The notes beneath the pieces were generated by a model. It had not been told where the DNA came from. It was given only the letters and a program-made list of their open reading frames with translations, and ran no database searches. A program made the position numbers and the translations under genes. A DNA stretch of 29,842 bases from an uncultured Dehalococcoidaceae bacterium (lineage in GTDB: Bacteria > Chloroflexota > Dehalococcoidia > Dehalococcoidales > RBG-16-60-22): NCBI GenBank assembly GCA_964414605.1, contig CAYPYL010000001.1:1-29842 (forward strand). The letters are read 5' to 3'. Below are positions 1 through 28,958 of the stretch, piece after piece (positions within the stretch are counted from its first letter, which is position 1; each line of letters begins with the position of its first letter).

Positions 1-95
1 AATAGCTTTTCGAGGTTCGTTCCCTTGGGCGGAGCGACCTCGCTGGTAACGACGAATTTTCCGGAACCAAGGGCTTCTTTGAAACGTGATACCAT
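1..95 (-). CDS. metF: Methylenetetrahydrofolate reductase MetF, 5' end only (runs off the window start; absent from ORF track)
   Basis: Manual translation from ATG at 95 gives MVSRFKEALGSGKFVVTSEVAPPKGTNLEKL. This matches the MetF N-terminus and the paralog at 17768 (EFIVTTEVGPPK). A GAGGGGG RBS lies just upstream, and the gene follows metV. Confidence 0.9.
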   Translation of the reverse strand, partial: MVSRFKEALGSGKFVVTSEVAPPKGTNLEKL

Positions 96-156
96 TATCC
101 TAACCCCCTCATAAAAACCTGTATCCTTCCCGTGTCAAAGACCATTTTTAGTTGAA

Positions 157-165
157 ATGATAGCA
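157..165 (-). promoter_or_regulatory. Possible extended -10 (TGCTATCAT) in the metV-metF spacer
   Basis: TG-n-TAnnnT pattern about 60 nt upstream of the metF ATG; pattern match only. Confidence 0.3.
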
Positions 166-176
166 TCCTTACTCCA

Positions 177-821
177 TTAAGTGATGGTGACGGCCCGCGG
201 CCTGGGGACTACGTGGTGATTTCGGGGCGCCTGATACCGGCGCATCAGGTCCAGCCTGCCCTGCTCTTTAAGTCGATTGTAGATGAGCGTCCAGGCGCAG
301 TCCTTCTCCTTATCGACCTCGCACTTGCCGTTATTGGTGCCGCCGCAGGGCCCGTTGACCAGCCCCTTGTGGCAGGCGGTGATGGGGCAGATGCCGGCGG
401 TCTCTCCGAGGATACACTGGCCGCACTGGGCGCAGGCCTCCCGGAAATAACCGGGCGTTTCTTCCACGCCGATGAACAGCGTATCCACCGCCGGAATTAT
501 CGGTTTATCAATATAAAGGTTCATGCGGTGTATACCCAGGGCGCAGCTCATCGATAGAACGGCATCGGCACCGCGGATGAACTGCTCATTTTCCTTCATG
601 GCGGCCTCGGTCATGTCGTCGCAGGCGGTGGGAATTACCATGGCGCCGGTAACGAGCTTGCCCATCTCCTGCAAATGCCCTTTCATCTCTTCTACCTGCT
701 CGATGCCGCCGGTACTGGTCAGGGTGGTACAGGTGCCGCAACCGACCACGAATATCTTATCCAGCCCCTCAAGGCCCCGCTGAATGTCTTCAATCGGTTT
801 TTGTCTTGTTATCGATTTCAT
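177..821 (-). CDS. metV: MetV, Fe-S subunit of MetVF-type methylene-THF reductase
   Basis: N-terminal GCGTC...GG motif and C-terminal 8-Cys block CAQCGQC-x8-CPITAC-x7-PC-x7-C-x7-CAW. Adjacent to metF. RBS GGAGGGG. Confidence 0.9.
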   Translation of the reverse strand: MKSITRQKPIEDIQRGLEGLDKIFVVGCGTCTTLTSTGGIEQVEEMKGHLQEMGKLVTGAMVIPTACDDMTEAAMKENEQFIRGADAVLSMSCALGIHRMNLYIDKPIIPAVDTLFIGVEETPGYFREACAQCGQCILGETAGICPITACHKGLVNGPCGGTNNGKCEVDKEKDCAWTLIYNRLKEQGRLDLMRRYQAPRNHHVVPRPRAVTIT

Positions 822-833
822 AGCTGACCCCTC

Positions 834-3800
834 CTAGCTTTCAAGGTCGCACCTCAAGCACCTTTTTGCCTCCCGGCGGGCTACGTCCTCCGTAAACCCG
901 AGCTCTATCTCTTCAAAGCTGGCTCGCCTTTCCGGGAGCGGCAGCGTCTTCACTTTAGACCTCGGTTTGAGTTCCCAGGACTCCTCCAACTCCGGCGCGG
1001 CCCCTTCGGCAACTTTTACTTTCCGGTCGTAAATCTCGACCCTTGTATCGTCGCCCCTCAAGTACTTATCAATGGCGATAGCCCCTCTCCTCCCGGCGGC
1101 AACAGCCTCGACGACCATGCCCGGCCCGGTCACGAAGTCGCCGCCGGCGAACACGCCGGTTACATTAGTGACCAGGGAGTTGCTATCGACCACCAGGGTT
1201 TCCCACCTTGTACGTTCCAGAGCGCTATCCGCAGGCAGGAAGGAGAGGTCCGGCGCCTGCCCTACGGCGGCGATAACCGTATCCGCCTCCGCGGTGAACT
1301 CCGAGCCACTCACGGGGACGGGCCGCCTTCGTCCGCTGTCATCTGGTGCTCCCAGCGTCATCCTGATGCATTGAAGCCCCGTTACCTTCCAGTTATTGCT
1401 GGTAATCCTGGTGGGGCTGGCGAGAAAACTTATATTCACACCTTCGGCGACGGCTTCATCATACTCGATATCGGAAACCGGCATTTCATCACGTGAGCGC
1501 CGGTAGTAGATACTGGCTTCACCGGCGCCGATGCGGAGCGCGGTCCGGGCGGCATCGAGGGCGACATTACCACCCCCCACGATGGCCACCCGATTGCCCA
1601 CGGTTACTTCCCTGCCCAGTCTGACATCGCGCAGGAACCTCAATCCGTAGTAAAGGCCTTCAATATCCTCGACCTCCCCGGGTATGCCGAGTCGCTGACT
1701 GCGCTGGGCACCCGCCGCGATAAACACCGAGGCGAAGCCGTCGTTTTTCAAGTCCTCGACAGTAAAATTAGTATTGATGGGGGTACCGTATTTAATCTCA
1801 ACTCCCCGCTTGATAATATAGTCGATATCCTGCTGGATGGCGGCGCTCGGCAGGCGGAACTCCGGTATCGCCACCGAAAGCATTCCACCTCCCACGGGAA
1901 GCGCTTCAAAGACCGTTACAGGGTAGCCCTCCTGCGCCAGAAAGTAGGCGCAGGCCAGGCCGGTGGGGCCTGCCCCCACCACGGCAATCTTCTCCCTCTT
2001 GGTTACCGGGAAAGGCTCGATATCACCGGTTTCCGAACCGTGCTCCGCATACCAGTCGGCGGCGAAGCGTTTCAGCGTCCTGATAGCCACGGGTTCATCA
2101 AGATCGCCGCGACGGCACCGTCCCTCACAGGGGTGGTGACAGATCCGACCACACACGGCGGCGAAGGGATTGCGTTCCCGTATGGTCTCGATGGCTTCCT
2201 TATATTCGCCCTCGGCGATATGCGCAACGTACTTGGGGATATTGATACCCGCGGGGCAGGTATGCTGACACGGCGAAATCATCAGGGTCTCGCAGACCGC
2301 AGCCGGGCATTTCTTTTCCCTGATATGCTCCTCGTACTCGCTGCGGAAGTAATTGATGGTAGATAAGACGGGATTAGGCGCCGTCTGCCCCAGGCCGCAG
2401 AGGGAACACTCCTTCACTGTCTTGGCTATCGACAGCAGGGACTCAATATCCTCGTCACGCCCCCTGCCCTCGGTAATCCTGGTAAGAATTTCCAGCATCT
2501 GGCGAGTGCCCAGTCGACAGGGTGTGCATTTCCCGCATGACTCGCTCTGGGTAAAGCTCAAAAAGTATCTGGCCACCTCCACCATGCAGGTGGCCTCGTC
2601 CATGACGACCATCCCACCGGAGCCCATGATGGAGCCGAGTCCGGCAAGCGTCTCGTATTCTATGGGTGTATCGATGAAGCGGGCGGGAATGCAGCCGCCG
2701 GAAGGTCCACCGGTCTGTACCGCCTTAAGCTGCCTGCCGCGCGGAATTCCGCCGCCGATGTTATTAATGATATGGGACAGCGGCGTGCCCATGGGCACTT
2801 CGACCAGACCGCTATTGGCGATTTTCCCGGTAAGAGCAAAAACGGCCGTGCCCTTGCTCTTCTCCGTGCCGATTCCGGCAAACCAGTCGGCGCCTTTTTC
2901 GATAATGACCGGGACAGTTGCCAGCGTTTTTACGTTATTTATAATGGTCGGTTTGCCATCCAGACCGGAGTTGGCCGGGAAGGGTGGTCTTGGGCGGGGC
3001 ATACCGCGCCGGCTCTCGATGGACGCTATCAGCGCCGTCTCCTCGCCGCAGACAAAAGCGCCGGCGCCTTCTTTTATATGGACTGTGAAATTAAAATCAG
3101 TACCGAGGATTCCTTTCCCCAGGAAATTTTTCTCCTGCGCCTGTTCGAGAGCCTTGCGAATGCGTTCTACGGCTAGCGGGTACTCGGCGCGGACATAGAT
3201 ATAGCCTTCACTGGCACCGATGGCGTAGGCGGCTATCGCCAGACCTTCCAGGACGGCATGAGGATCGGCTTCCAGAATGGAGCGGTCCATAAATGCCCCG
3301 GGGTCGCCTTCATCAGCATTGCATATCATGTATTTCTGCTCGCCGGCAGCTTTACGGCAGAATTCCCACTTGGTACCGGTGGGAAAGCCCGCCCCGCCCC
3401 TGCCCCGCAGACCGGAACTTTTTATAATGTCAATAACCTCTTCCGGCGCCATCATAAAGACCACTTTTTTGAGGGACTGGTATCCTCCCCTATTGATATA
3501 ATCGCTGATACGTTCGGGATTTATGTGCCCGCAGTTCCGCAAAACGATACGCTCCTGCTCCTGATAGAATTTAATATCCGCATATCCCGGTATTGCCTCG
3601 CCGGTCACCGGGTCGTGGTAGAAAAGGCGCTCAACCGGCTGGCCGTCGCGGAGGTGAGAAGTAACGATATCGGCGGCATCGTCTGCATCGACATGGGTAT
3701 AGAAGATGCCATCGGGTTCAACCACGACATTAGGTCCCTGCTGGCAGAAGCCGTGACAGCCGGTGAAGTCTATCTCGGCTCCGGTTACTCCCTGCTTTTT

Positions 3801-3893
3801 CAGTTCCGCCTTGAGAGCTTTGTAGACGTTGTCGCCGCCACCCGAGACACATCCGGTACCCCGGCAGACTAATACCTTGCGTTTTCGCGGCAT
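834..3893 (-). CDS. NuoF/HydB-like flavoprotein fused to a C-terminal GltD/NfnB-like FAD/NAD(P)H oxidoreductase domain (1019 aa from ATG 3893)
   Basis: N-terminal [2Fe-2S] domain (VCRGTGC...GCHGFCQQGP), GLRGRGGAGFP, NADEGDPGAFMDR, GAFVCGEETAL and CGKCTPC...CSLCGLG. These are followed by PCQHTCP, NPFAAVCGRIC, GAGPTG, GGGNVALD, YRRS, FAGGD and EAKRCLRC. ATG 3893 has RBS GGAAGGAG and lies 1 nt after the nuoE stop. Confidence 0.9.
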   Translation of the reverse strand: MPRKRKVLVCRGTGCVSGGGDNVYKALKAELKKQGVTGAEIDFTGCHGFCQQGPNVVVEPDGIFYTHVDADDAADIVTSHLRDGQPVERLFYHDPVTGEAIPGYADIKFYQEQERIVLRNCGHINPERISDYINRGGYQSLKKVVFMMAPEEVIDIIKSSGLRGRGGAGFPTGTKWEFCRKAAGEQKYMICNADEGDPGAFMDRSILEADPHAVLEGLAIAAYAIGASEGYIYVRAEYPLAVERIRKALEQAQEKNFLGKGILGTDFNFTVHIKEGAGAFVCGEETALIASIESRRGMPRPRPPFPANSGLDGKPTIINNVKTLATVPVIIEKGADWFAGIGTEKSKGTAVFALTGKIANSGLVEVPMGTPLSHIINNIGGGIPRGRQLKAVQTGGPSGGCIPARFIDTPIEYETLAGLGSIMGSGGMVVMDEATCMVEVARYFLSFTQSESCGKCTPCRLGTRQMLEILTRITEGRGRDEDIESLLSIAKTVKECSLCGLGQTAPNPVLSTINYFRSEYEEHIREKKCPAAVCETLMISPCQHTCPAGINIPKYVAHIAEGEYKEAIETIRERNPFAAVCGRICHHPCEGRCRRGDLDEPVAIRTLKRFAADWYAEHGSETGDIEPFPVTKREKIAVVGAGPTGLACAYFLAQEGYPVTVFEALPVGGGMLSVAIPEFRLPSAAIQQDIDYIIKRGVEIKYGTPINTNFTVEDLKNDGFASVFIAAGAQRSQRLGIPGEVEDIEGLYYGLRFLRDVRLGREVTVGNRVAIVGGGNVALDAARTALRIGAGEASIYYRRSRDEMPVSDIEYDEAVAEGVNISFLASPTRITSNNWKVTGLQCIRMTLGAPDDSGRRRPVPVSGSEFTAEADTVIAAVGQAPDLSFLPADSALERTRWETLVVDSNSLVTNVTGVFAGGDFVTGPGMVVEAVAAGRRGAIAIDKYLRGDDTRVEIYDRKVKVAEGAAPELEESWELKPRSKVKTLPLPERRASFEEIELGFTEDVARREAKRCLRCDLES

Positions 3894-3894
3894 A

Positions 3895-4380
3895 TTACTC
3901 CTTCCCACTCTTGCCAAATAGTCGGGCTACCTTCTTGGGATTCATGTCGCCGTGGGCTTCTTTGTTTATCATGAGATTCGGTGCCAGCGCACAGACACCG
4001 ATACAGGCGACCGTTTCGAGGGTATATTCCATGTCGTCGGTGGTTTCCCCCTCCTCAACGCCCAGGTACTGCCTGACCAGTTTCAGGATAGTCTTGCCGC
4101 CGCGCACGTGGCAGGCGGTTCCCCGACAAACCCGTACGATATTTTTACCCCGGGGATGGGTGTAAAGCTGCTCATAAAACGTAATCACCGCCTGTACCTG
4201 GCTGGGGAACAGCCCCAAGGCGGCGGCTATACGTGGTATGGCTTCCGGGGGAATATAGCCGACCTTCTCCTGGATCTCCTGGGTCAGGGGTATCAACGCC
4301 CATCTTTCACCCCGGTAACCCGCGATAATTTTATCTATCTGTCTCATGTTTACCGGGGGTGCTTTCTTTGCCTTATCCAT
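3895..4380 (-). CDS. NuoE/HydC-like [2Fe-2S] subunit
   Basis: VCRGTACHVRGG and VACIGVCALAP ligand motifs; TFY motif; 8-nt overlap with the upstream gene. Confidence 0.92.
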   Translation of the reverse strand: MDKAKKAPPVNMRQIDKIIAGYRGERWALIPLTQEIQEKVGYIPPEAIPRIAAALGLFPSQVQAVITFYEQLYTHPRGKNIVRVCRGTACHVRGGKTILKLVRQYLGVEEGETTDDMEYTLETVACIGVCALAPNLMINKEAHGDMNPKKVARLFGKSGKE

Positions 4381-7063
4381 TATCGGCAGTCCTTTCCAGT
4401 CTGACCGCGCATGATTTGAGCGCCGGCGTTTTGACCTGACGGTCGAGTACGGCAGGGAACAGGCCGTAAACGGGAGTGTTCGGGTAAGACATGGGCATAT
4501 AAAGCAGGCCGCGCGATAACGTGTTATTAACTTTAGCGGTTGCTGTTATCTCTCCCTGCGCCGAGATGACCTTTACGGTAGCGCCGTCGATTATGCCCGT
4601 TTCGGCGGCATCGTCATCGCTTATTTCCAGAAACGCTTCCGGAGAAAAACGGTTCAGCCGTCCCGACCGCGTGCTGCGCGCGCCGGTGCCAAAGTGATAA
4701 CGACTGGAGCCGACTATTAAAGTATGGGGATAGCCGTTGCTTTCCGCTTCCTGCGGAGGCGTATACTCCACGGTTAAAAACCGACCGAAACCGCTGGGGA
4801 AAAGTCCTTTATACAAACGCCGGTTCCCGTAATAGCCGTCTTCCTCTTCGGCCAGTTCCGGTTCTATAACGTCGCTGTCAACGCGGGCGGCATGATGGCA
4901 GAACGGCACCGATTCCTCGATTTCATTAAGCACTTCCTGTTGAGAGTCATACCGCAACGGGTAGTCCATCTTACCGGAGAGCTCCAGTATTATTTCCGCA
5001 TCAGGAAGGCTCTCGCCAACAGGCTCGATGGCCTTCGTTAGCTGCTGGACCCTCCCCTCGAAATTGGTGAAGGTGCCGTATTTTTCAGCGAAGCTGGCAG
5101 CCGGCAGCACCACCGAAGCCAGCGCGGCGGTTTCGGTCAGGAACATATCCGTCACCACCAGTAAATCGAGCCTCGCCAGGGCTTCCTTGACCAGGGACGT
5201 TTGAGGGAAACTCACCGCCGGATTTTCTCCCATGACGAACATCGCCTTCACCTTTCCAGTTCCCGCCGCCTCTATCATCTCCCAGGCTGTCAATCCGGCG
5301 TTCACCGGCAAGTCGCATCGCCAGCGCTCCTCGAACGTCTGCCTGTCTTGAGCGTTATTGATGTTCTTATAACCGGGCAGGAAATCGGGCAGAACGCCCA
5401 CGTCGCATGCTCCAAGGGCATTGTTCTCCCGTTGCAGGGCAAAAATCCCGCCGTGCCTGCCGGCATTCCCGGTGAGCATATTCAAATTTCCGATGGCGAT
5501 TACGGCATCGGTTCCGGTGACGTATTGCGTTATACCGTTCCCGTAGACGATAGAGGTTTGTTCGGCGCCGGCAATAATACGTGCGGCTTTCTGCATGTCT
5601 TTCCTGGGAACGCCCGTGATTTTCTCTGCGTATCCGGGTTCCTGCTGCTTCAGACTTTGAGCCCACCGCGCGAAGTTATCCGTCATACGGGTAACGAACT
5701 CTATATCCATTTTCCCCTCTTCGATAATCACCCTGGCAAGTTCGTTGAGCAGGGCTACATCGGTACCCGTGCGGGGTTTGAGCCACATATGGGCGAACTG
5801 CGATAGCGACGTCCGGCGCGGGTCTACGACGATTAAACCGGCACCTTTATTCCTGACGGCTCGCTTGATGGCATAAGCTACGGCGGGAGCCGATATTTCC
5901 GGGTCGGCCCCGATGACCATTATCACCTGTGATTTTTCCAGCGAATCTATAGTTCCGGTAGTGCCGGCGTAGCCGACGGATGTACCCAGGCCCACCCGGC
6001 TCGCGGCGCTGTAAAGACGACTGCCGTTATCAATGTTGTTGGTGCCCAGGACGACGCGAGTGAACTTCTGGAGAAGATAATTTTCCTCATTGGTGCACTT
6101 TGAGGAGCCGAATACGGCGATAGCGTCGGCGCCGTGGTTCTCTTTTATCCGGTTGAGTTCACCGGCCACCCGAGAAAGCGCTTCTTCCCAGGTAGCCTCC
6201 TGAAACTGGCCATCTACTTTAACCTGCGGATGAAGCAGTCGCTCCGGACTGTGAATAAAGTCGTACCCGTAACTCCCCCGCACGCACAGAGTGCCGGCGT
6301 TCACCTGCCCTTCCGGGGGAGGCCTGGAAAATATTACCCTGCCGTCCTTGACTCCCAGACAAACGGTGCACCCGCAGCCGCAATAAGGACATATCGTGGT
6401 GACCGTTTCCGTCGCCGTACCGCTATAAGCCCTTTCCTTCTCCATCAGGGCGCCTGTCGGGCAGATAGCCACGCAGGTGCCGCAGAAGGTGCACTCCGAT
6501 TTTTCCAGCGGCATATCGTTCAGGGTCGCCGGCCTGACCGCAGCGCCGCGGTCGATATAGTCGATAGCCCCCTCCACGACCAGCTCCTGGTCAGCCCTGA
6601 TGCACTTGCTACACATGATACACTTGGAGAGGTCGCGCTCGATAAACGAATTGACTTCTTCGATTATGTCCAGCTGCGGAATTCTCTGGAACTCGACGAG
6701 GCCGATTCCCATTTCCGCCGCCAGCTTGCGTAACTGACAGCTATTTCCCTTATCGCAAACCAGGCAGGAATCGGGGTGGCTGGCGAGGAGGAGTTTTAAG
6801 ATTTTTTTTCGGTGCTCCACCACCCGCGGTGAGTTGGTCTTGATAACCATTCCCGGCGATATAGGCGTCACGCAGGAAGCCAGCAAAGCACCGTTGCGTT
6901 CGTCCTCCACCAGGCAGAGACGGCAGGCTCCTACCGATGCCAGATTAGGGTCGTAGCAGAGAGTAGGAATATATACCCCGGATTCCCGCGCCAGGTCCAG
7001 GATAGTAGTGCCCGGGTAACCGCTTACCTCGACGTCATTCAGGACAATCGTAATTGCTTCCAC
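4373..7063 (-). CDS. FdhA/NuoG-like molybdopterin-oxidoreductase-family subunit with a non-canonical active site
   Basis: [2Fe-2S] (CYDP...GACRLC...SC), HPDSCLVC-x5-C, 2x[4Fe-4S] domain, CPYCGCGC...LC cluster, GSSKCTNEENY, NNID, LPAASFAEKYGTFTNFEGRVQ and a molybdopterin-dinucleotide-type C-terminal domain. GTG start directly after the upstream TGA. Confidence 0.85.
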   Translation of the reverse strand: MEAITIVLNDVEVSGYPGTTILDLARESGVYIPTLCYDPNLASVGACRLCLVEDERNGALLASCVTPISPGMVIKTNSPRVVEHRKKILKLLLASHPDSCLVCDKGNSCQLRKLAAEMGIGLVEFQRIPQLDIIEEVNSFIERDLSKCIMCSKCIRADQELVVEGAIDYIDRGAAVRPATLNDMPLEKSECTFCGTCVAICPTGALMEKERAYSGTATETVTTICPYCGCGCTVCLGVKDGRVIFSRPPPEGQVNAGTLCVRGSYGYDFIHSPERLLHPQVKVDGQFQEATWEEALSRVAGELNRIKENHGADAIAVFGSSKCTNEENYLLQKFTRVVLGTNNIDNGSRLYSAASRVGLGTSVGYAGTTGTIDSLEKSQVIMVIGADPEISAPAVAYAIKRAVRNKGAGLIVVDPRRTSLSQFAHMWLKPRTGTDVALLNELARVIIEEGKMDIEFVTRMTDNFARWAQSLKQQEPGYAEKITGVPRKDMQKAARIIAGAEQTSIVYGNGITQYVTGTDAVIAIGNLNMLTGNAGRHGGIFALQRENNALGACDVGVLPDFLPGYKNINNAQDRQTFEERWRCDLPVNAGLTAWEMIEAAGTGKVKAMFVMGENPAVSFPQTSLVKEALARLDLLVVTDMFLTETAALASVVLPAASFAEKYGTFTNFEGRVQQLTKAIEPVGESLPDAEIILELSGKMDYPLRYDSQQEVLNEIEESVPFCHHAARVDSDVIEPELAEEEDGYYGNRRLYKGLFPSGFGRFLTVEYTPPQEAESNGYPHTLIVGSSRYHFGTGARSTRSGRLNRFSPEAFLEISDDDAAETGIIDGATVKVISAQGEITATAKVNNTLSRGLLYMPMSYPNTPVYGLFPAVLDRQVKTPALKSCAVRLERTADNG

Positions 7064-7879
7064 TCAAGCTGTCTCCCCATCCTGTACCTTCGGCTGGAGA
7101 GATTCAATCCACGACTGGTCGCCACGCGCCACGGAACGGATACCGGTCAGCAGCCGGGAACTGGCGGCGGCTTTGGGGATAAACCCCACCGCCCCCACCT
7201 TTTTACTGGCAAGGACATTCTCCTCGTCGTCGTACTGCGTCAGCATCAGGACCTTGGCGGTCTTTTGTTTCTGGCAAATTTCACGGGCGGCGTCCAGTCC
7301 GTTCATCACCGGCATGATAATGTCCATCACCACGACATCCGGTATGAGCTCCATAGTCTTCTCCAGCGCCTCTTTCCCGTTGACGGCCTCCCCGACGACC
7401 TGCATATCCCGCTGCAGCGTAAGCACGGATTTTATCCCGTCCCTTACCACCGCGTGGTCATCGACAATCAGCACCCTGATTTTCTTGGTAGCCCTGTCCA
7501 GCAGGGCCTGGATGCGGGGTACCAGGGCAACCGGCTCGACGGGCTTGGCGAGGAAATCTTCGGCGTCTATCTGCATACCCTCATCCATTCTCCAACCCTT
7601 GAGCAGTTGCTTTTCCGGCGGAGCATTGATAACCATGATTGGTAGATTGCCAAACCCCAGGGTCTGCTTCATCCATTTGTGGAACAGAAAGGCATCGCCG
7701 CGGGGCATAATCGTGCCCAGGACAATCGCGTCGGGCTCGTGAGAGCGTACCGACTCTTTAGCCTCTTCCTGGTCGCCGGCGGTGACGACGGTATACCCTA
7801 CTTTTTCCAGGGCCTTCTTTACCTCTTCTAAAAATTCTTCTTCGTCATCCACTATCAGAATCGTTTGTTCTTTTTCCAT
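7064..7879 (-). CDS. Tandem pseudo-receiver + NarL-type receiver protein with no output domain (271 aa from ATG 7879)
   Basis: First REC domain ILIVDDE...IVLGTIMP...KP; second REC domain VLIVDDH...VVMDIIMP...LTQYDD...PK. No HTH. RBS AAAGGAGG before ATG 7879. Confidence 0.88.
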   Translation of the reverse strand: MEKEQTILIVDDEEEFLEEVKKALEKVGYTVVTAGDQEEAKESVRSHEPDAIVLGTIMPRGDAFLFHKWMKQTLGFGNLPIMVINAPPEKQLLKGWRMDEGMQIDAEDFLAKPVEPVALVPRIQALLDRATKKIRVLIVDDHAVVRDGIKSVLTLQRDMQVVGEAVNGKEALEKTMELIPDVVVMDIIMPVMNGLDAAREICQKQKTAKVLMLTQYDDEENVLASKKVGAVGFIPKAAASSRLLTGIRSVARGDQSWIESLQPKVQDGETA

Positions 7880-7930
7880 TTTTTGCCTCCTTTCACCGGA
7901 AGCGCCTATAGTTACCACTATATGATGCAT

Positions 7931-7963
7931 AGTATAAACAGGGAATAGGGGATTTACCCCGAT
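7931..7963 (-). promoter_or_regulatory. Candidate promoter of the left redox operon: -10 TATACT (7936-7931) plus imperfect palindrome ATAGGGGATTTACCCCGAT (7945-7963)
   Basis: Read directly. The palindrome overlaps the expected -35 position and recurs at 14837-14855. Confidence 0.5.
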
Positions 7964-8082
7964 AACCGGCAGACTAAACCCCTGAATTTACGAAAATATA
8001 CCCTGACAATGGGATTAACGAAAAATGAACGGACGGCGTTACGGAGGAGCGGCAGTTTGTATGATTCCGGGTCAGGCGAAGA

Positions 8083-8736
8083 CTAAAGAGTGATGATACC
8101 CTTACGCAGAGCGGCTTTAACCAGTTCGACGCGGTTATGGACACCCAGCTTCAGCATGAGATTGGTCTTGTGCCCTTCCACGGTCTTGGGGGTTATGACC
8201 AGGATATTCGCTATTTCCTGTGTGCTGCGGCCTTCCGCGAGCAACTTGAATACCTCGCGCTCGCGTGTTGTTAATCTGTTATACGGGTCCTGCATCGTAC
8301 GTTGGCCGGCGGAGTCCCGATAGTTGTCCACCATCAGCTTGGTAACGGACGGCGAAAGGTAAGAGTCCCCCCGGAAGACCGAGCGTATCCCCACCGTGAG
8401 TTCCGAAGACGCCGCCGCCTTACTGATAAATCCGGAGGCGCCTGACTCGATAACCGGAAAGAAATACTCTTTATCATCGTACTGGGTAAGGACAAGCACT
8501 TTGGTCCTCGGGAATTCTTTACTTATGCGGCGCGTTGCCTCCAGACCGCCCATCACCGGCATGGCAATATCCATGAGCACAACATCAGGGTCCAGCTCCC
8601 GCACCTTGTCCAGTGCTTCGTTGCCGTTGGTAGCTTCTCCCACTACCTCGATATCACCGGATAATGCCAGCAGGGCGCTAATGCCGTCGCGTATGATGGT
8701 ATGGTCGTCAACTACCAGCACTCTTATCTTTTGCAT
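8083..8736 (-). CDS. NarL/FixJ-family response regulator (REC + LuxR-type HTH)
   Basis: VLVVDDH, PDVVLMDIAMP, LTTREREVFKLLAEGRSTQEIA, TPKTVEGHKTNLMLKL. Confidence 0.95.
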   Translation of the reverse strand: MQKIRVLVVDDHTIIRDGISALLALSGDIEVVGEATNGNEALDKVRELDPDVVLMDIAMPVMGGLEATRRISKEFPRTKVLVLTQYDDKEYFFPVIESGASGFISKAAASSELTVGIRSVFRGDSYLSPSVTKLMVDNYRDSAGQRTMQDPYNRLTTREREVFKLLAEGRSTQEIANILVITPKTVEGHKTNLMLKLGVHNRVELVKAALRKGIITL

Positions 8737-9970
8737 ATGCTATTTCCTGTCCGACCGGTATCCTGGCCCAGACCTTGGTACCCTTCCCCGGTTCAGATTC
8801 GATTCCGCTGGTGCCGCCGAGAAAACCGATTCTCTCCCTCATGCTGAACAGACCGCGCCCCCGACCGCTCTCCTCTACATCGGTAATTTCTGACACGTTA
8901 AATCCCTGGCCGTCATCGGTAATGGTGAGTATAAATTCATCCTGCCTGAATTCCAGTATCATGGCAGCATTCTTTGCTTTGGAATGTTTGACGATGTTGC
9001 CGATGGCGCTCTGGACGAAACGGAAAAGGGCTGCCTCGACATCAGGTGGAAACCTCATTTCTTTGCCTTTTGTCTCTATGGTCACGTTGATTTCAAGCAA
9101 CTGCAACCTGGACTCCACGTTCTGGCGAATCGCCGGTACCAGTCCCAGCGTATCCAGTAAAGCCGGGTGCAGGTTGGATATCAGCCGACTTACCTCGTTG
9201 TGCACCTGCACGGTCAATGCCTGTACCTTTTTCAGTCCGGCGGTAAATTCAGGCTCATGCTGGCCGGACATGGCGGATAACTCAATCAATGCCTGCAACT
9301 GTAGGGCTATCCCGGAAAGCGATTGACTGGTCTCGTCGTGAAGTTCGCGGGCTATCCTTCTCCTCTCGTCCTCCTCCGCCATCAGGTTCTGGCGGGCGAG
9401 CCTGCGCAGCCTCTCCCGCGCTTTCCTCAAGCGCTCGTACAGTCTGGCGTGTTCTACGGCGATGCCGAGCTGGTCGCCGATAGCGTAAAGCAGATGCATA
9501 TCGCTGGTGGTAAATTTACGGGACTCGCGACTGGCCACGTTCAGAACGCCCAATACCTTATCCCTGGCCCGGAGGGGCACACATACATATGCCTTCAGCC
9601 CCTCCGCCGCAACCATCTCCCGATGTGCCACCCGCGGGTCCGCGGAGATATCTTCGAGGAGAATAGCCTTGCCGGTCTTGGCCACGCTGCCGGAAATACC
9701 TTCGCCCAGGCTCAAACTTACATTCTCCACGAATTCCTTGCTTAGACCGCGATGTACTACGTGGGAGAGTTCCTGGGTGAGTTCATCGATGAGTAATATC
9801 TCACCGATGGTCCCGTTCATGATATCCAGGGTGCTGTCAAGACCGACACCGAGAATGGCATTTAAGTCCCAAAGGCCGCTTAACGCCGCCGATATCCTGC
9901 TTAATACCAGAAGCTCGGACTGCTGCCCGCCCTTTTTCACTTTTAGCCCATGCGTCCCAGAGGAGTTCAT
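8708..9970 (-). CDS. Cytoplasmic GAF + HisKA_3 + HATPase sensor histidine kinase
   Basis: GAF (VPLRARDKVLGVLNV), H-box ERRRIARELHDETSQ, NIVKHS, DDGQGF, GRGLFSM, GKGT. No transmembrane segment seen. ATG 9970 preferred over TTG 9994. Confidence 0.92.
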   Translation of the reverse strand: MNSSGTHGLKVKKGGQQSELLVLSRISAALSGLWDLNAILGVGLDSTLDIMNGTIGEILLIDELTQELSHVVHRGLSKEFVENVSLSLGEGISGSVAKTGKAILLEDISADPRVAHREMVAAEGLKAYVCVPLRARDKVLGVLNVASRESRKFTTSDMHLLYAIGDQLGIAVEHARLYERLRKARERLRRLARQNLMAEEDERRRIARELHDETSQSLSGIALQLQALIELSAMSGQHEPEFTAGLKKVQALTVQVHNEVSRLISNLHPALLDTLGLVPAIRQNVESRLQLLEINVTIETKGKEMRFPPDVEAALFRFVQSAIGNIVKHSKAKNAAMILEFRQDEFILTITDDGQGFNVSEITDVEESGRGRGLFSMRERIGFLGGTSGIESEPGKGTKVWARIPVGQEIAYAKDKSAGS

Positions 9971-10024
9971 TTTTCCCCACACTCCTCCCCTCAACTATAT
10001 TACGGCAACTATAACGTATCAATT

Positions 10025-10087: not shown

Positions 10088-11308
10088 CTATCCGCTCCTG
10101 ATGCTGCGGATAATTTCACCCAGTTTGGGCCTTTTCCCATACATGAGCAGGTAAATTCTGAAAACCTTGATGGATATATATAATACACCGATGATAGAGA
10201 GTGCCAGTAACACGATGCTGGTAGCCATTTCCCAGGCAGGGATATCGCTGACTCCCAGCCTTAGCATCGCTTCTACGGGAGCCGTGATGGGGAAAATAGT
10301 CAGGACTGTCCAGATTGGGCTTTTCGGGAATATCATCAATAAAGATGAGAACCAGAGGGGTACGATGGCAAACATGGAATAAATCAGGGATAATTGCGTT
10401 CCTTCCCGGGCATTGGGGCTGATGGCGCCGACACCCGCCGAAAGCGCAGTGAACAATAGATATCCCAATATGAAATAGATAATCCCCAGAACGATGAAGT
10501 TAGCCGGTATCTGTATTGTGCTGAAAAAACCGCCGAAAGTGGATGAGGCCAGGTTCAACAGGAGCGGCAGTGAGATAAGCCAGACTACCACCTGTACCAG
10601 ACCAGCTATACCCAGTCCCAACACCTTTCCAGTGAGTAATTGCCGGGTGGTAACGGAGGACAGTAATACCTCAATAAGCCGGCTCTCTTTCTCCTCTCCC
10701 AGTCCCTGTACCATATAGCCGGCAAAGAAATTCAGAGAGAGGGCAAGCAGCAGGCTGAAAATAGCGGGAACAAGGAGATTCGCGAAGCCGCCCTGCTCGG
10801 TAGCCACTGCGCCGGTTTCGGTAAGTCTGGTAGTCGCCAGATATAACGGGGATTCAACGAGCTGAATAATACCGGCAGGCACTTCCCCCGATAAGAGATT
10901 ACTCGTAAGAAAACTCTTTATGGCGGACTGAATTCCCGGGGGTGGTTCCAGCTGTTTCTCCAGAGTATACAGGTTTACTAATCCCGCCGACGTGTAAGAC
11001 GTTGAAATGACGAAATATTCCGAAACGTCGTCCGCGAGTAAGGCAGCCGTCGCCTCATCCTGCGTAGGGTAGCGGACCATCTCGATTGGCCCCTGGGCGG
11101 TATACCGATCGAATCCGCCGATTTCATCAACGTACCCGATGGTAGTCGTTTCTACTTCCGACGGCTCGATGATTGACGATATCAGCTGGACGACGCCTAT
11201 CGCCAGGAGAGCCAGGACCGGCACGATAAGGGTCATCACGATAAATCCTGTCCGCTTTATCGTATGCAGGAATTCGTGCCTGAATATCAGCAGCGTCTTC
11301 CTATCTAT
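10088..11308 (-). CDS. ABC-2 type (NatB-like) permease; probable non-canonical ATA start at 11308
   Basis: EEKESRLIEVLLSSV, LLTGKVLG and multiple TM helices. The frame stays open upstream of the ORF-track start and gives IDRKTLLIFRHEFLHTIKRTGFIVM after SD AAGGAGGT. Confidence 0.88.
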   Translation of the reverse strand: MDRKTLLIFRHEFLHTIKRTGFIVMTLIVPVLALLAIGVVQLISSIIEPSEVETTTIGYVDEIGGFDRYTAQGPIEMVRYPTQDEATAALLADDVSEYFVISTSYTSAGLVNLYTLEKQLEPPPGIQSAIKSFLTSNLLSGEVPAGIIQLVESPLYLATTRLTETGAVATEQGGFANLLVPAIFSLLLALSLNFFAGYMVQGLGEEKESRLIEVLLSSVTTRQLLTGKVLGLGIAGLVQVVVWLISLPLLLNLASSTFGGFFSTIQIPANFIVLGIIYFILGYLLFTALSAGVGAISPNAREGTQLSLIYSMFAIVPLWFSSLLMIFPKSPIWTVLTIFPITAPVEAMLRLGVSDIPAWEMATSIVLLALSIIGVLYISIKVFRIYLLMYGKRPKLGEIIRSIRSG

Positions 11309-12195
11309 TTTTTCGCCACCTCCTTCAGGAATATCTCGTTAAGCGAGGGAGTGGCCATCTCAAAACGATTGATGACTATACCGCGGCTTACCAGCTGCTC
11401 CAGGATTTGTTGAGGGGTTGTCTTCTCATCCAGCAACAGTTCGACGTAGCCCTTGTGCTGGCGTTTCCCGGTAACCCCGGATACGTCACCCAGTTCACCT
11501 TCGGTATTAACGAAAACCGAATTGCCTCTGTATTTCGACTTTATTTCAGCCAGGTCACCGTAAAGGACGGCGCGCCCGTTGTTTACCATCAGGATACGGT
11601 CGCACAGTTCCTCCACCTGGTTCATCTGATGAGCGCTCAAGACGACGGCTTTACCCTGATTCTTCAAGTCGACACATATCTCTCTCAACAGCTCTACGTT
11701 CACCGGGTCGAGGCCGGAAAATGGCTCGTCCAGAATAACCAGCTGCGGGTCATGCGTGATAGTAACAACGAACTGAATAATCTGACTCATACCCTTGCTC
11801 ATTTCCTCGATTTTCTTTCCCTTATTGGTTAACATGCCTGTTTTTTCGAGCAGTTCGCTGGCCCTTTCTTCCGCCCGATGCCGGTCCATGCCCTTAAGGG
11901 AAGCAAGGTATATTATTGTTTCAAGGACTTTCAGTTTTTTATACAGGCCTCTTTCCTCGGGCAGGTAGCCGAGGTTATTCTGGGCATCTTCACCGAACTT
12001 CTTGCCGAAGACAAATACCTCACCCGAATCCGGTCTGATGATGTCCATCGCCATCCTGATTGTCGTGGTCTTGCCCGCGCCGTTGGGGCCTATCAGACCG
12101 AATATCTCGCCCTGATTGACCGAGAAAGACAGGTCATCAACAGCGATTTTATCCGCAAATGTCTTGACTACATGGCTGACTTTAACTGCCTGCAT
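11305..12195 (-). CDS. ABC transporter ATP-binding subunit (NatA-like)
   Basis: Walker A GPNGAGKTT, signature MSKGM, Walker B VILDEP, H-loop SAH. Confidence 0.95.
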   Translation of the reverse strand: MQAVKVSHVVKTFADKIAVDDLSFSVNQGEIFGLIGPNGAGKTTTIRMAMDIIRPDSGEVFVFGKKFGEDAQNNLGYLPEERGLYKKLKVLETIIYLASLKGMDRHRAEERASELLEKTGMLTNKGKKIEEMSKGMSQIIQFVVTITHDPQLVILDEPFSGLDPVNVELLREICVDLKNQGKAVVLSAHQMNQVEELCDRILMVNNGRAVLYGDLAEIKSKYRGNSVFVNTEGELGDVSGVTGKRQHKGYVELLLDEKTTPQQILEQLVSRGIVINRFEMATPSLNEIFLKEVAKK

Positions 12196-12492: not shown

Positions 12493-14121
12493 GTGGATGT
12501 GGAGATGGGTACGAAAAAAGCAGAGACGTCCGAGCCTATAGACTCCGGGCTGAAAGTTGACCTACAGGAAATAATCGATGCCGTAGAAGACGAGCTTCTG
12601 CTAGTCGACCCCGATTACCGTGTCAGGTTCGCTAATGCAGCTATGCTCAATAAATACCAGACCAAAGGCGATTCGCCTATCGGCAAGTTGTGCTATAAGG
12701 TCTTTCATAACAGGAACACTCCCTGCCATGAACCTTTTTGGGACTGCCCCCTGCAACAGGTCGTTGAAAGCGGGAACATGACGACGGTTATTCATCCTGT
12801 CAACCAGCCCGGAGTTCATGGTTACGTAAAAATCACGGCATATCCTATTTTTGACAAGCAGGGCAAGACCAGAGCCATGGTGGAATTGCGGAGGGATGTC
12901 ACCGCGGAAAGAGAACTGGAAACGCAGATTCTCAGGCGACATCATCAACTTTTAGCATTGAGTCATATCTCGGGTGCCGTGAGCGGACTGTATGATCTGG
13001 ATACCATTTTAAAGACTGCACTGGATGATGTGCTAGAGCTTGTTAACAGCGACATCGGAGGCATTTTACTCTTTGATGAAGAGTCCCAGACCTTGAGCTA
13101 TCGGGTACAGCGTGGATTATCCGCAAAATACACCGAAGAGGCTAAAATACCCCTGGGTAAGAGCATCGCGGGACAGGCGGCAGAAATCGGCGAGCCCATA
13201 ATAGTGGAGGATATTTCCAAGGACCCGCGTATCACCCGGCCGGAGCTAGTTATCGCCGAGGGACTCAAAGGATTTGTGAGTATTCCCCTTAAGGCGAAGG
13301 AAAAAGTGACCGGGGTAATGAATATCGCCAGCCACGTGGCAAACCGTTTTGCCGCCGACGAGGTCTCTTTACTCAAGTCGATTGGCGATTATCTGGGTAC
13401 GGCAATTGAGCAGGCAAGACTCTACGATAGGCTGGCGCAGGCGGGAGAAAGATATCGGGCGCTTCTACAACACGCCCTGACGGCACAGGAACAGGAACGA
13501 AAGAGGATAGCCCGCGAATTACACGACGACACCAGCCAGGCGATTACCAGCCTGACCTTAAGCCTCCAGGCGATAATGACGATTGCGGAGATGAAGGGTA
13601 TCGGGGATGCCGAATTTATAGAGAAGGTCAAAGCGACGCACTCCTTCGCGGTTCACGCCGGCCATGAAATCGTGAGGCTAATGAAAGAACTCCGGCCCAG
13701 CCTGCTGGATGAGCTCGGTATGCCGGCGGCGATACACCGTTACGCCAAGGACACGCTTCAGTCTCATGGAATCAACGTATCTTCTGAATTTAATGGTACG
13801 GAAAAGAGGTTCCCGCCAGAGGTCGAAGTGACTCTTTTCCGGGTGGCGCAGGGACTAATCGGCAATATCCTGGAACACTCCGAAGCGAAGAATACCCTGG
13901 TTAAACTGGAATGTGATGAAAATGAGTGTACGCTGTATATAGAGGACGATGGCAAAGGCTTTGATGTGAAGAAACTAACGCGGGTTGACCCCAGCGGAAG
14001 GGGGGCGGGTTTGTTCACTCTCAAGGAGAGGGTAAGTCTGGCCGGAGGACACTGCCATATCGACTCCCGTCCGGGGCAGGGCACCAAGGTAACCGTAAAA
14101 ATACCGCTTGTGGAAATTTAA
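12493..14121 (+). CDS. Cytoplasmic PAS (Cys-motif) + GAF + HisKA_3 + HATPase sensor histidine kinase
   Basis: PAS (VDPDYRVRFAN...GKLCYKVF...RDVT), GAF (IPLKAKEKVTGVMNI), H-box ERKRIARELHDDTSQ, DDGKGF, GAGLF, GQGT. Confidence 0.92.
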   Translation: MDVEMGTKKAETSEPIDSGLKVDLQEIIDAVEDELLLVDPDYRVRFANAAMLNKYQTKGDSPIGKLCYKVFHNRNTPCHEPFWDCPLQQVVESGNMTTVIHPVNQPGVHGYVKITAYPIFDKQGKTRAMVELRRDVTAERELETQILRRHHQLLALSHISGAVSGLYDLDTILKTALDDVLELVNSDIGGILLFDEESQTLSYRVQRGLSAKYTEEAKIPLGKSIAGQAAEIGEPIIVEDISKDPRITRPELVIAEGLKGFVSIPLKAKEKVTGVMNIASHVANRFAADEVSLLKSIGDYLGTAIEQARLYDRLAQAGERYRALLQHALTAQEQERKRIARELHDDTSQAITSLTLSLQAIMTIAEMKGIGDAEFIEKVKATHSFAVHAGHEIVRLMKELRPSLLDELGMPAAIHRYAKDTLQSHGINVSSEFNGTEKRFPPEVEVTLFRVAQGLIGNILEHSEAKNTLVKLECDENECTLYIEDDGKGFDVKKLTRVDPSGRGAGLFTLKERVSLAGGHCHIDSRPGQGTKVTVKIPLVEI

Positions 14122-14124
14122 CGT

Positions 14125-14778
14125 ATGAAGAAAATAAAGGTATTGATAGTTGATGACCATACCCTGGTACGGGCCGGAATACGTTCCCTGCTGATGCTCG
14201 TCGATGATATCGAAGTAGTCGGCGAGGCATCGGACGGTAAAGAAGCCCTGACAAAGGTAAGGCAACTCATGCCTGACGTGGTACTCATGGACCTGGCAAT
14301 GCCGGTCATGGGCGGACTCGAAGCCACACGACGTTTACGAAAGGAATTCCCCGGCATAAAGGTACTGGCACTGACACAATATGACGATAGCGAATATGTT
14401 ATTCCCATCATCGAAGCAGGTGCCAGCGGTTTTGTAACTAAGATGTCGGCGTTTACGGAGCTTGCCGCGGCTATCGAAGCCGCCAATAGAGGAGAATCCT
14501 ACCTGTCTTCAACTGCCGCCACGGCTCTTGTCGAGGAATATCAGCAGAAAATACCATCTAACGGCGAACAGGACCCTTACCAGCAGCTAACGGATAGGGA
14601 GAGGGAAGTGATTAAGCTGGTTGCGGAAGGGCATACCAGCCGTGAGATTGCCGAGATACTTATCGTCAGCCCCAAGACGGTGGAGTGGTATAAAAGCAGC
14701 TTGATGAACAAGCTGAACCTCCGCAGCAAGACCGACCTGATTAAGTATGCCATCCGCAAGCGGATAATAACAATATAG
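14125..14778 (+). CDS. NarL/FixJ-family response regulator (REC + LuxR-type HTH)
   Basis: VLIVDDH, PDVVLMDLAMP, LTDREREVIKLVAEGHTSREIA, SPKTVEWYKSSLMNKL. Confidence 0.95.
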   Translation: MKKIKVLIVDDHTLVRAGIRSLLMLVDDIEVVGEASDGKEALTKVRQLMPDVVLMDLAMPVMGGLEATRRLRKEFPGIKVLALTQYDDSEYVIPIIEAGASGFVTKMSAFTELAAAIEAANRGESYLSSTAATALVEEYQQKIPSNGEQDPYQQLTDREREVIKLVAEGHTSREIAEILIVSPKTVEWYKSSLMNKLNLRSKTDLIKYAIRKRIITI

Positions 14779-14929: not shown

Positions 14930-14986
14930 TAAGTAGTATATTAACCGTCGATTGTTGCCACTCAACAGAGATTGAGGTGTTTGCTG

Positions 14987-17095: not shown

Positions 17096-17775
17096 TAGTA
17101 GCGGAGCAAAAGCCTCTGGAAGATATAATACGCATGATTGGCCCTTATCAACGAGTATTGATACTCGGTTGTGGCACCTGCATGACGGTATGTGACGCCG
17201 GTGGTGAGCGTGAGGTCTCTTTTCTCCACGACGCATTACAGCTGGCGCAGACAAGGAGTGGTGAAGGTGCTCATACCTTTACCGAACATACCGTGAAAAG
17301 GCAGTGCGACCCGGAGTTCCTGGAGCCGCTTGCCGAAAGAATAGCTGATTTGGACGTAATACTATCGCTGGGTTGTGGCATCGGCGTGCAGGCTATAGCG
17401 GAACGTTTTGCGGATATGCCGGTGCTGCCCGGCGTTAACACCTCTTTCATGGGTATGACTAAAGAATCGGGGGTCTGGGATGAGCGCTGCGCCGCTTGCG
17501 GTGAGTGCCGGCTGGAAGACACTGCCGGCATATGTCCAATCACCAGGTGTACTAAAGGCATACTCAACGGTCCCTGTGCCGGTACTAAGAACGGTAAATG
17601 TGAGGCTAATAAGGATATGGACTGCGCCTGGATTTTAATTTATCAGCGCCTGGAAAGATTACAGCAACTGGACAAGATGCGCCGGTATTACGCTCCCCGG
17701 AATTACCGGGCAATCCCCAGACCGAGAAGAATCACGATTAACGTAGAGACTGCGGTGGGAGAAAGCGATGGCTAA
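17092..17775 (+). CDS. metV: MetV, second copy
   Basis: GCGTCMTVCDAGG, RQCD, GCGIG and 8-Cys block CAACGEC...CPITRC...PC...C...CAW. TTG start overlaps the upstream TGA. Confidence 0.92.
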   Translation: MIVAEQKPLEDIIRMIGPYQRVLILGCGTCMTVCDAGGEREVSFLHDALQLAQTRSGEGAHTFTEHTVKRQCDPEFLEPLAERIADLDVILSLGCGIGVQAIAERFADMPVLPGVNTSFMGMTKESGVWDERCAACGECRLEDTAGICPITRCTKGILNGPCAGTKNGKCEANKDMDCAWILIYQRLERLQQLDKMRRYYAPRNYRAIPRPRRITINVETAVGESDG

Positions 17776-18670: not shown

Positions 18671-18739
18671 GGTGCCTTTGGTCAGGTATATTACCGGGTG
18701 GCCATAATGGCTATATTCACGGTAGTGGAGGAGAATGAG

Positions 18740-28774: not shown

Positions 28775-28958
28775 CTTCCTATCCTCCTTTACCTTTTCAA
28801 GCTGATTTGTCACGCTTGGTCTCACTACGAAGAGATCAACGATTACTTTCCTCAATCTCCCTCCTTTTGTGATGGTCCTTTCTTGCAAATCACCTATGAT
28901 TCCTGTTAAAATAAAAACAGGTGGTGGCTTACCCGTTATCGCCTAAATTCTTTTCTTG

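Follow-up and report, generated by a model that had tools for sequence, protein, structure and literature searches.

A candidate X-type methylene-tetrahydrofolate reductase operon in Dehalococcoidia, with a Bfu/Stn-related trimer and a NuoF::GltD fusion upstream of MetVF

We analysed a stretch of 29,842 nucleotides (nt) from an uncultured Dehalococcoidaceae bacterium (contig CAYPYL010000001.1, assembly GCA_964414605.1), hereafter the window. At its beginning lies an operon, module 1, in which the genes of a MetVF-type methylene-tetrahydrofolate reductase (MTHFR) directly follow genes for three proteins related to the subunits of Bfu and Stn enzymes. With moderate confidence we read module 1 as an 'X-type' MetVF methylene-tetrahydrofolate (methylene-THF) reductase that is served by this Bfu/Stn-related electron-input trimer. 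Slightly more confidently, and judging from gene order and domain content, we take the trimer for the physiological redox partner of MetVF. As a single enzyme, the five proteins would then connect both pyridine-nucleotide pools with the CH2-THF/CH3-THF couple (E0' -200 mV). Module 1 joins a MetVF reductase and a Bfu/Stn module, both of known kind, in an uncharacterised combination, and is not a categorically new system.

All genes of module 1 lie on the reverse strand. The most upstream is an fdhA-like gene (4373 to 7063), which starts with GTG and encodes, by its Pfam domains, an FdhA-derived BfuA/NuoG-like subunit of 896 amino acids (aa). It overlaps by 8 nt with the gene for a NuoE/BfuC-like protein of 161 aa (3895 to 4380), which has a [2Fe-2S] thioredoxin-like domain (PF01257). 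After a gap of 1 nt follows a nuoF::gltD fusion gene. Its open reading frame (ORF) spans 834 to 3917, and a start at the ATG at 3893 yields a protein of 1019 aa, the length common to 120 homologue clusters. Pfam and PDB matches identify residues 1 to 535 (2289 to 3893) as a NuoF/BfuB-like half, and residues 536 to 1019 (834 to 2288) form a GltD-like half with Fer4_20 and Pyr_redox_2 domains. The next gene, 12 nt further, is metV (177 to 821), which encodes the Fe-S/Zn subunit of MetVF (214 aa; PF12225/DUF5981). Finally metF, for the catalytic flavoprotein subunit, starts at 95, 81 nt past metV and behind a GAGGGGG ribosome-binding site. Its reading frame leaves the window, which holds the first 31 codons (1 to 95). 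The encoded N-terminus matches full-length MetF proteins (294 aa, PF02219) at the same position in four other loci (L001, L002, L084 and L085 of the survey below). The tight packing of fdhA-like, nuoE, nuoF-gltD and metV with metF next, as first described, is exact in all spacings, and Pfam confirms the domains.

The linkage of these genes has been described before. The original prediction had presented it as a candidate new architecture, but Yi et al. (2021) already reported that in Dethiosulfatarculus sandiegensis homologues of NuoEFG lie upstream of metFV. They found the arrangement 'widely in Desulfobacterales and Chloroflexi', placed the MetFV proteins that belong to it in a phylogenetic group of their own (group III) and speculated about a bifurcating 'X type' MTHFR (PMC8515935). 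Earlier, Frank et al. (2016) had described fdhA-nuoE-nuoF-metV-metF in a syntrophic, uncultured Firmicute; they took it for a link between CO2 reduction and methylene-THF reduction. Of the genes fdh, nuoE, nuoF and the second metVF their text says that they 'were all detected' in the metaproteome (PMC5080403). Module 1 resembles the X type in its genes (NuoG-like, NuoE and NuoF genes, then metV-metF), in the speculation on bifurcation and in its taxa: Chloroflexi and Desulfobacterales/Desulfarculales-type Deltaproteobacteria, where our locus L038 comes from a metagenome-assembled genome (MAG) of Desulfarculales. We equate the two from the description and the taxa. The arrangement has thus been predicted, and nobody has characterised a homologue with the same gene set. 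The features that we describe below, namely the fusion with GltD, the absence of a ferredoxin-like domain and the dead site of the formate dehydrogenase (FDH), are mentioned neither by Yi et al. (2021) nor by Frank et al. (2016). The survey of the Bfu family by Schut et al. (2022) mentions neither GltD nor MTHFR. In the freely accessible literature searched we found no later characterisation of an X-type enzyme or of NuoF::GltD fusions.

To see how often these genes occur together, we scanned one genome per GTDB species with a 7-sequence alignment of the fusion and labelled the ORFs of the resulting 80 loci by phmmer with the window proteins as queries. The NuoF::GltD fusion occurs in 58 of the 80 loci, and 12 further loci are canonical Stn/NfnABC (among the canonical Stn: L054, L056, L061, L062, L064, L066 and L069). 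Seven of the 58 fusion loci (L004 to L008, L010 and L038) have the order of the window, BfuA(FdhA-like)-NuoE-NuoF::GltD-MetV-MetF. They belong to Dehalococcoidia, Desulfomonilaceae, a 'delta proteobacterium' and Desulfarculales. Context look-ups added further five-gene blocks in L001 to L003 (78-85% identity) and in L084 to L086, the latter from MAGs labelled Syntrophomonadaceae, 'Syn...' and Spirochaetes. The block (L001 to L008, L010, L038 and L084 to L086) is present in Chloroflexota, Desulfobacterota and other MAGs, which makes at least three phyla by label. These are 12 independent loci, and their outer flanks are unrelated; the gene adjacency is therefore more than chance. All 12 independent loci whose NuoF::GltD reaches an identity of at least 57% across the whole protein have metVF directly downstream. 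The distance from the fusion to metV ranges from -17 nt (an overlap) to +155 nt across the linked loci. The linkage of NuoF::GltD to metVF, for which the original prediction had proposed a neighbourhood survey, is thus conserved across phyla. More than 120 clusters (grouped at 90% identity) are at least 76% identical to the fusion protein of the window; the module 1 operon is abundant in subsurface Dehalococcoidia and also occurs in Desulfobacterota.

The fusions that are linked to metVF form a single clade in a neighbour-joining tree of 50 fusions, and by this tree the linked clade has a single origin. BfuA has moved upstream in this clade only, and as a result the C-terminus of GltD abuts metV. 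In the other 51 fusion loci the order is NuoE-NuoF::GltD-BfuA. There, BfuA is an Fe-S-only protein of about 230 aa, NuoG-like, an [FeFe]-hydrogenase HydA (for example in Pontiella sulfatireligans, L035, and Ca. Dichloromethanomonas, L028), HdrA-like or a genuine Cys- or Sec-FDH.

MetV and MetF themselves are of the expected kind. MetV of module 1 matches PF12225 (E = 1.6e-36), carries the NGPCGG motif (LVNGPCGGTNNGKCE) and has 12 Cys; with metF (PF02219) directly downstream, the pair has the features of a MetVF-type MTHFR. In the Desulfarculales locus L038, MetV and MetF are clear orthologues of the module 1 proteins of Dehalococcoidia (301 bits with MetV of the window, 488 bits with MetF of L001). 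A second MetV in L038 is closer to the MetV of a second module in the window, module 2, described below. In L038 (1 to 14702) an HdrA-like/MvhD/MetV/MetF cluster lies about 2 kb upstream of the FdhA-like/NuoE/NuoF::GltD/MetV/MetF cluster. This genome, like the window, thus has two differently partnered MetVF sets side by side.

The NuoF::GltD fusion consists of the Pfam domains 2Fe-2S_thioredx, Complex1_51K, SLBB, NADH_4Fe-4S, Fer4_20 and Pyr_redox_2. The best PDB matches of its NuoF half are BfuB subunits of bifurcating enzymes: HydB of A. mobile (7t2r_B, 3e-229), HydB 7q4v_B, NfnB 9bov_B, NfnB 9n5u_B and StnB 8oh5_B. They far outscore complex-I NuoF. The flavin mononucleotide (FMN)/NADH site has the motifs GRGGAGFPTG and DEGDPGAF, and the ligands of the B1 [4Fe-4S] cluster (C453, C456, C459 and C499) are kept in 49 to 50 of 50 fusions. 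Bifurcating BfuB is marked by a Bfu-specific hinge (Cys, Cys/Thr, His, Cys, Cys), which non-bifurcating NuoF homologues do not have. In the fusion, C436, T474, H523, C529 and C534 align to this B2/Zn hinge in A. mobile (C438, C476, H525, C531 and C536). The Cys positions of the hinge are kept in all 50 fusions and H523 is invariant in alignments of 7 and of 14 fusions. The thioredoxin-like domain with the N-terminal [2Fe-2S] cluster of BfuB (B5) is present as well (C10, C15, C46 and C50). NuoE has the ligands of the [2Fe-2S] cluster C1 (C85, C90, C126 and C130), matches PF01257 (E = 1.4e-46) and scores 155 bits against the NCBIfam NuoE equivalog NF005722 (cut-off 141 bits); PF01257 also matches the fusion. 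The trimer was first proposed to be of the HydABC/Bfu type, and the matches of the NuoF part to HydB, NfnB and StnB together with the Cys/Thr/His/Cys/Cys site bear this out.

However, the fusion lacks the C-terminal ferredoxin-like domain of BfuB with its two [4Fe-4S] clusters (B3/B4). The alignments with HydB, NfnB and StnB all stop at the hinge. Only 7 residues further comes the first cluster Cys of GltD, where the chain resumes as the GltD N-terminal Fe-S domain (Fer4_20). This domain aligns to residues 102-199 of NfnA and to NfnL, and the GltD half to residues 102-567 of NfnA (9bov_A), residues 102-566 of StnC (8oh5_C) and to NfnL (4ylf_B). It contains two predicted [4Fe-4S] sites (Cys 542, 546, 581, 585, 589, 593, 1012 and 1015, kept in 45 to 50 of 50 fusions), a flavin adenine dinucleotide (FAD) motif GxGxxG (VGAGPTG) and an NADPH motif GxGxxA...YRR (GGGNVA...YRRS / YYRRSR). 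From these motifs we infer specificity for NADPH rather than NADH. As judged from the alignments, the GltD module (FAD/NADPH) replaces the ferredoxin-like domain of BfuB and does not supplement it. The trimer had been predicted to carry an extra NADP(H) site. A GltD-type FAD/NADPH module is indeed carried, but it is not extra: it occupies the place of B3/B4. In Stn and Nfn-Bfu enzymes the low-potential path runs from C1 through B3/B4 to ferredoxin, and a swinging NuoE-type cluster feeds B3/B4 (PMC12018979; PMC10482914). Hence the exchange of B3/B4 for GltD changes the plausible low-potential partner.

Canonical GltD has an N-terminal cluster motif, CxxC...CxxxCP. Both GltD modules of the window, the one in module 1 and that of module 2, have just the CxxxCP part of it at the N-terminus (module 1: residues 542-546, near 2267-2270) and an RCLRC motif at the C-terminal end. 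RCLRC (residues 1012-1015 of the fusion, 834-848 of the window; in module 2, 16424-16438 of the window) is kept in 49 of 50 fusions. The first-cluster ligands of GltD look circularly permuted.

NuoF::GltD fusions without the ferredoxin-like domain of BfuB are widespread (L009 to L055, L068, L073, L075, L076, L078 and L082). They are found in Aminicenantes, Acidobacteriota, Zixibacteria, Bacteroidota, Kiritimatiellota, Planctomycetota, Firmicutes and others. Their A subunits include HydA (L025 to L036), an HdrA-like protein (L016) and genuine Cys- or Sec-FDHs (L020 to L023 and L043). In the literature searched we found no description of a BfuB variant with GltD for the ferredoxin-like domain. 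In four loci (L006, L010, L053 and L076) the fusion and its neighbours are broken into several overlapping ORFs, which look like assembly frameshift errors and not like real pseudogenes.

The closest characterised relatives of the trimer are the StnABC/NfnABC enzymes (S. ovata, 8oh5; Caldicellulosiruptor, 9bov; Thermococcus sibiricus, 9n5u), which have the same domains in another fusion. The trimer shares with them a NuoE-like subunit, a NuoF-like subunit that has the Bfu hinge, a FAD/NADPH module of the GltD kind and an FdhF/NuoG-like Fe-S subunit that is inactive. In Stn/Nfn the GltD module is inserted in BfuA (StnC/NfnA), where it feeds the mid-potential path, and BfuB ends in the ferredoxin-reducing domain with two [4Fe-4S] clusters. 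In module 1, by contrast, GltD sits on the C-terminus of BfuB, and the A subunit has neither Pyr_redox_2 nor Fer4_20. The gene order differs too: BfuA-C-B followed by metVF in the same operon in module 1, C-B-A in Stn/Nfn (A-B-C in Stn subunit naming). We therefore do not count the trimer among canonical Stn/NfnABC, since its GltD module is on the B and not on the A subunit, although it does have the inactive FdhF/NuoG-like subunit. Nor is it a canonical BfuABC (Schut et al. 2022): the ferredoxin-like domain is absent, although the FMN/NADH site, B1, the hinge, B5 and C1 are all present.

Several observations weigh against the trimer and MetVF being one enzyme. Stn, like the trimer of module 1, is found adjoining metVF. 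In S. ovata stnABC adjoins metVF, yet Stn purifies as an independent transhydrogenase without formate activity. This is our chief reason for not equating adjacency with a complex. Sporomusa silvacetica (L066) has the same adjacency as S. ovata, with Stn directly after hdrA-mvhD-metV-metF. The core of the trimer also seems to work without metVF, since metVF is missing from 51 of the 58 fusion loci. It is missing as well from the Dehalococcoidia locus L078, which is nested in the metVF-linked clade. Among long GltD-containing representatives, a Rosetta-stone search found HdrA::GltD or NuoG::GltD proteins and no natural fusion of MetV to GltD, NuoF or NuoG. An MvhD-like adaptor, as it occurs in the Moorella type and in module 2, is absent from module 1. 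In Table S1 of Frank et al. (2016), unlike in their main text, only metF (2635450614) of the cluster has an abundance value (PMC5080403).

Hence the trimer may be a stand-alone enzyme: a domain-shuffled NADH-dependent ferredoxin:NADP+ oxidoreductase of the Stn/NfnABC type that is merely co-transcribed with a ferredoxin-dependent two-subunit MetVF, both serving the Wood-Ljungdahl pathway. The domain inventory equals that of StnABC/NfnABC, most NuoF::GltD trimers do without metVF just as the Sporomusa Stn is a separate enzyme next to it, and MetVF of Clostridium ljungdahlii is active alone with reduced ferredoxin (PMC8515935). We nevertheless consider a stand-alone transhydrogenase unlikely. The very domain with which Stn and Nfn-Bfu reduce ferredoxin, B3/B4, is missing. 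At all 12 independent loci with a fusion at least 57% identical, metVF follows directly with tiny gaps or an overlap (though not in L078, which is nested in the same clade), and the gene order is rearranged specifically in the metVF-linked clade.

If the five proteins do form one enzyme, its parts suggest how electrons could flow. NuoE would provide a mobile [2Fe-2S] cluster, NuoF::GltD the FMN/NAD(H) and FAD/NADP(H) sites, the dead NuoG-like subunit an Fe-S wire, MetF a flavin with the folate site and MetV further Fe-S centres. The NADPH pool in cells is usually more reduced than the NADH pool. Because of this difference and of the standard potentials of methylene-THF (-200 mV) and NAD(P) (-320 mV; PMC5861303), the reaction we favour, if only tentatively, is 2 NADH + NADP+ + CH2-THF <-> 2 NAD+ + NADPH + CH3-THF. 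NADH would donate its electrons at the FMN/B1/C1 site. One electron would then pass downhill to MetF by way of the A-clusters and MetV (the exergonic branch), and the other would be lifted to FAD and NADP+ by way of NuoE and the clusters of GltD (the endergonic branch). In the reverse direction NADPH would help to drive methyl-THF oxidation with NAD+, which is unfavourable by itself. Alternatively, the gene order and module 2 hint that MetV could dock on the domain of GltD.

More generally, NuoF::GltD could be an unrecognised Bfu-like branch with NADP(H) and not ferredoxin as the low-potential partner and, together with MetVF, a ferredoxin-independent bifurcating or confurcating MTHFR. We regard this as possible but doubtful. 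In the flavin-based bifurcating enzymes characterised by 2018 the low-potential acceptor was always ferredoxin or flavodoxin (PMC5861303). NADP+ in this role would be unprecedented, which counts against the proposal.

A simpler scheme does without energetic coupling. The five proteins could be one non-bifurcating complex of dual specificity, with an Fe-S chain to MetVF that takes its electrons either from NADH at the FMN or from NADPH at the FAD of GltD. Thermodynamics would allow it, since NADH and NADPH (-320 mV) both reduce methylene-THF (-200 mV) exergonically (PMC5861303). Other partners of NuoF::GltD, HydA and true FDH, also have donors able to reduce both nucleotides, and RnfC2-MetVF of A. 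woodii is NADH-dependent (PMC8515935). Such a complex is rather improbable, however, because the features of bifurcation are kept (the [2Fe-2S] cluster of NuoE, the N-terminal [2Fe-2S] cluster of BfuB and the His/Cys hinge) and because five subunits with about 12 clusters are costly for a reaction that a single-subunit MetF performs.

Two known MetVF systems bear on a coupled enzyme of five proteins. MetFV-HdrABC-MvhD of Moorella thermoacetica and Sporomusa ovata (6S/type IV) has the same MetV-MetF core, with metV directly after the electron-input genes, and like module 1 a partner with several flavins and clusters and a NAD(P)H site. Bifurcation has been proposed for it, with an unknown second acceptor (PMC8515935; PMC5861303). 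Its partner, however, is of the HdrA family with an MvhD adaptor and not of the NuoEFG/Bfu kind; module 1 has no HdrA, HdrBC or MvhD, and an MvhD domain is found in module 2. RnfC2-MetVF of Acetobacterium woodii (3S/type III) likewise joins MetVF to an NADH-binding flavin/Fe-S partner of the NuoF/RnfC fold (PMC8515935). This is a single partner with a MetV-like N-terminus, and it comes without a GltD/NADPH site, NuoE or a NuoG-like subunit. The A. woodii enzyme is not known to bifurcate.

The FdhA-like subunit raises the question of formate. Its Pfam domains are Fer2_4, NADH-G_4Fe-4S_3, two Fer4, Molybdop_Fe4S4, Molybdopterin and Molydop_binding. Accordingly, the predicted sites are a [2Fe-2S], a His-ligated [4Fe-4S], two [4Fe-4S] and the [4Fe-4S] cluster of a Mo-enzyme, next to a complete molybdopterin-fold domain. 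Like Fdh-Bfu and the FdsABG-type NAD-dependent FDHs, module 1 combines an FdhA that has an N-terminal NuoG-like Fe-S domain with NuoE and NuoF. The difference lies in the active site. The subunit has DNGSRLYSA in place of DHCARL[C/U]H and ALQRENN in place of the PLRGQNN of true FDHs. The A subunit of L038 has RLLSG and PLDKENN, that of L010 RLSSG. In all metVF-linked A subunits examined, Tyr, Leu or Ser takes the place of Sec/Cys (variable within the clade), Ser or Asn that of His, and Gln, Ser or Asp that of the catalytic Arg. The true FDH partners of NuoF::GltD fusions in sister clades keep RL[C/U]H and PLRGQNN. As far as sequence can tell, the FdhA-like subunit is thus an FDH-derived, catalytically dead, NuoG/StnC-like Fe-S scaffold and not a formate dehydrogenase. 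The label FdhA-like of the original prediction holds for the descent of the protein but not for its catalytic residues, which are gone in every metVF-linked locus. We do not place the subunit among NAD-dependent or Bfu-type FDHs: it has RLYSA and ALQRENN and falls below the Fdh-alpha equivalog cut-off.

An active FDH that couples CO2/formate to methylene-THF reduction, as Frank et al. (2016) suggested (PMC5080403), can draw on the full-length match to TIGR01591 Fdh-alpha (652 bits, just below the cut-off of 666) and on FDHs as best full-length PDB matches (FdsA 6tg9_A and 7vw6_A; YjgC 8rqz_C), but with Sec/Cys, His and Arg replaced in all metVF-linked loci and kept in the sister-clade FDHs we reject it as extremely improbable.

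The genes upstream of module 1 (7064 to 9994, reverse strand) are regulatory. A gene for a double-receiver response regulator of 288 aa with two Response_reg domains (Pfam; 7064 to 7930) ends with a stop codon that directly adjoins the GTG start of fdhA-like without a gap, and it is probably on the same transcript as module 1. A gene for a receiver protein of 260-279 aa lies at the equivalent position in L001, L002, L003 and L084. Further upstream, genes for a LuxR-type response regulator (8083 to 8736) and a GAF-HisKA_3 histidine kinase (8708 to 9994), both identified by Pfam, encode a putative dedicated two-component system. The GAF kinase is kept upstream of the five-gene block in L001, L002, L003 and L084 and the LuxR-type regulator in L001 and L084; the pair is absent from the Desulfobacterota-type locus L085. 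Promoter and terminator scans gave the same counts as shuffled sequences and are hence uninformative on transcript boundaries. Rfam and tRNA scans of the window found no match, and there is no riboswitch ahead of either module.

Module 2 (14972 to 18670, forward strand) is a second MTHFR module, a paralogue of module 1. It is headed by a fusion of 707 aa that joins GltD, two [4Fe-4S] clusters and MvhD (FlpD), as identified by Pfam. A metV (17092 to 17775) and a metF (17768 to 18670) follow on the same strand, with overlapping stop and start codons. The GltD parts of the two modules are 43% identical, with the C-terminal RCLRC included, and the MetV proteins are 42% identical. Module 2 is kept with other flanks in L087 and L088. 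It is probably an NADPH-linked MetVF enzyme without HdrA. A GltD-type NADPH module directly upstream of metV is hence a recurrent theme in these genomes, which supports a functional relationship between GltD and MetVF. Clusters at least 75% identical number more than 120, of which some are annotated 'heterodisulfide reductase subunit A' or 'formate dehydrogenase beta subunit'.

The two modules come with separate, paralogous sets of regulators, each made up of a GAF-HisKA_3 kinase, a LuxR-type regulator and a double-receiver protein without output domain; the set of module 2 lies at 12493 to 14778 and 18698 to 19594 (forward strand). Kinase and receiver accompany the modules in other Chloroflexota loci (L001, L002, L003, L084, L087 and L088), and the LuxR-type regulator does so in L001, L084, L087 and L088. 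Between the two regulatory sets lie the genes of an ABC-2 exporter on the reverse strand, with an ABC2_membrane_3 permease (10088 to 11239) and a DrrA-like ATPase (11305 to 12195). A giant ORF (20603 to 28888, reverse strand) encodes 2761 aa with a right-handed beta-helix and NosD-type repeats. Its product is probably a secreted or surface protein that is unrelated to the MTHFR modules.

A long-standing question of the Wood-Ljungdahl pathway is how the redox pools of the cell are coupled to the reduction of methylene-THF or, in acetate-oxidising sulfate reducers and syntrophs, to the oxidation of methyl-THF. The operon is a compact system of five subunits whose NAD(H), NADP(H) and folate sites are defined, and this coupling can be tested in it directly. 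If NADP(H) does not replace ferredoxin, the locus is a further type of MTHFR partner, one already flagged in 2021. A ferredoxin-independent bifurcating or confurcating MTHFR would be a new answer to the energetic coupling of the -200 mV step of the Wood-Ljungdahl pathway in either direction. Run backwards, the reaction would solve the oxidation of methyl-THF with NAD+ in acetate-oxidising Desulfobacterota. And if NADP(H) does replace ferredoxin, the known repertoire of flavin-based bifurcation would widen to a first case with a pyridine nucleotide as the low-potential acceptor.

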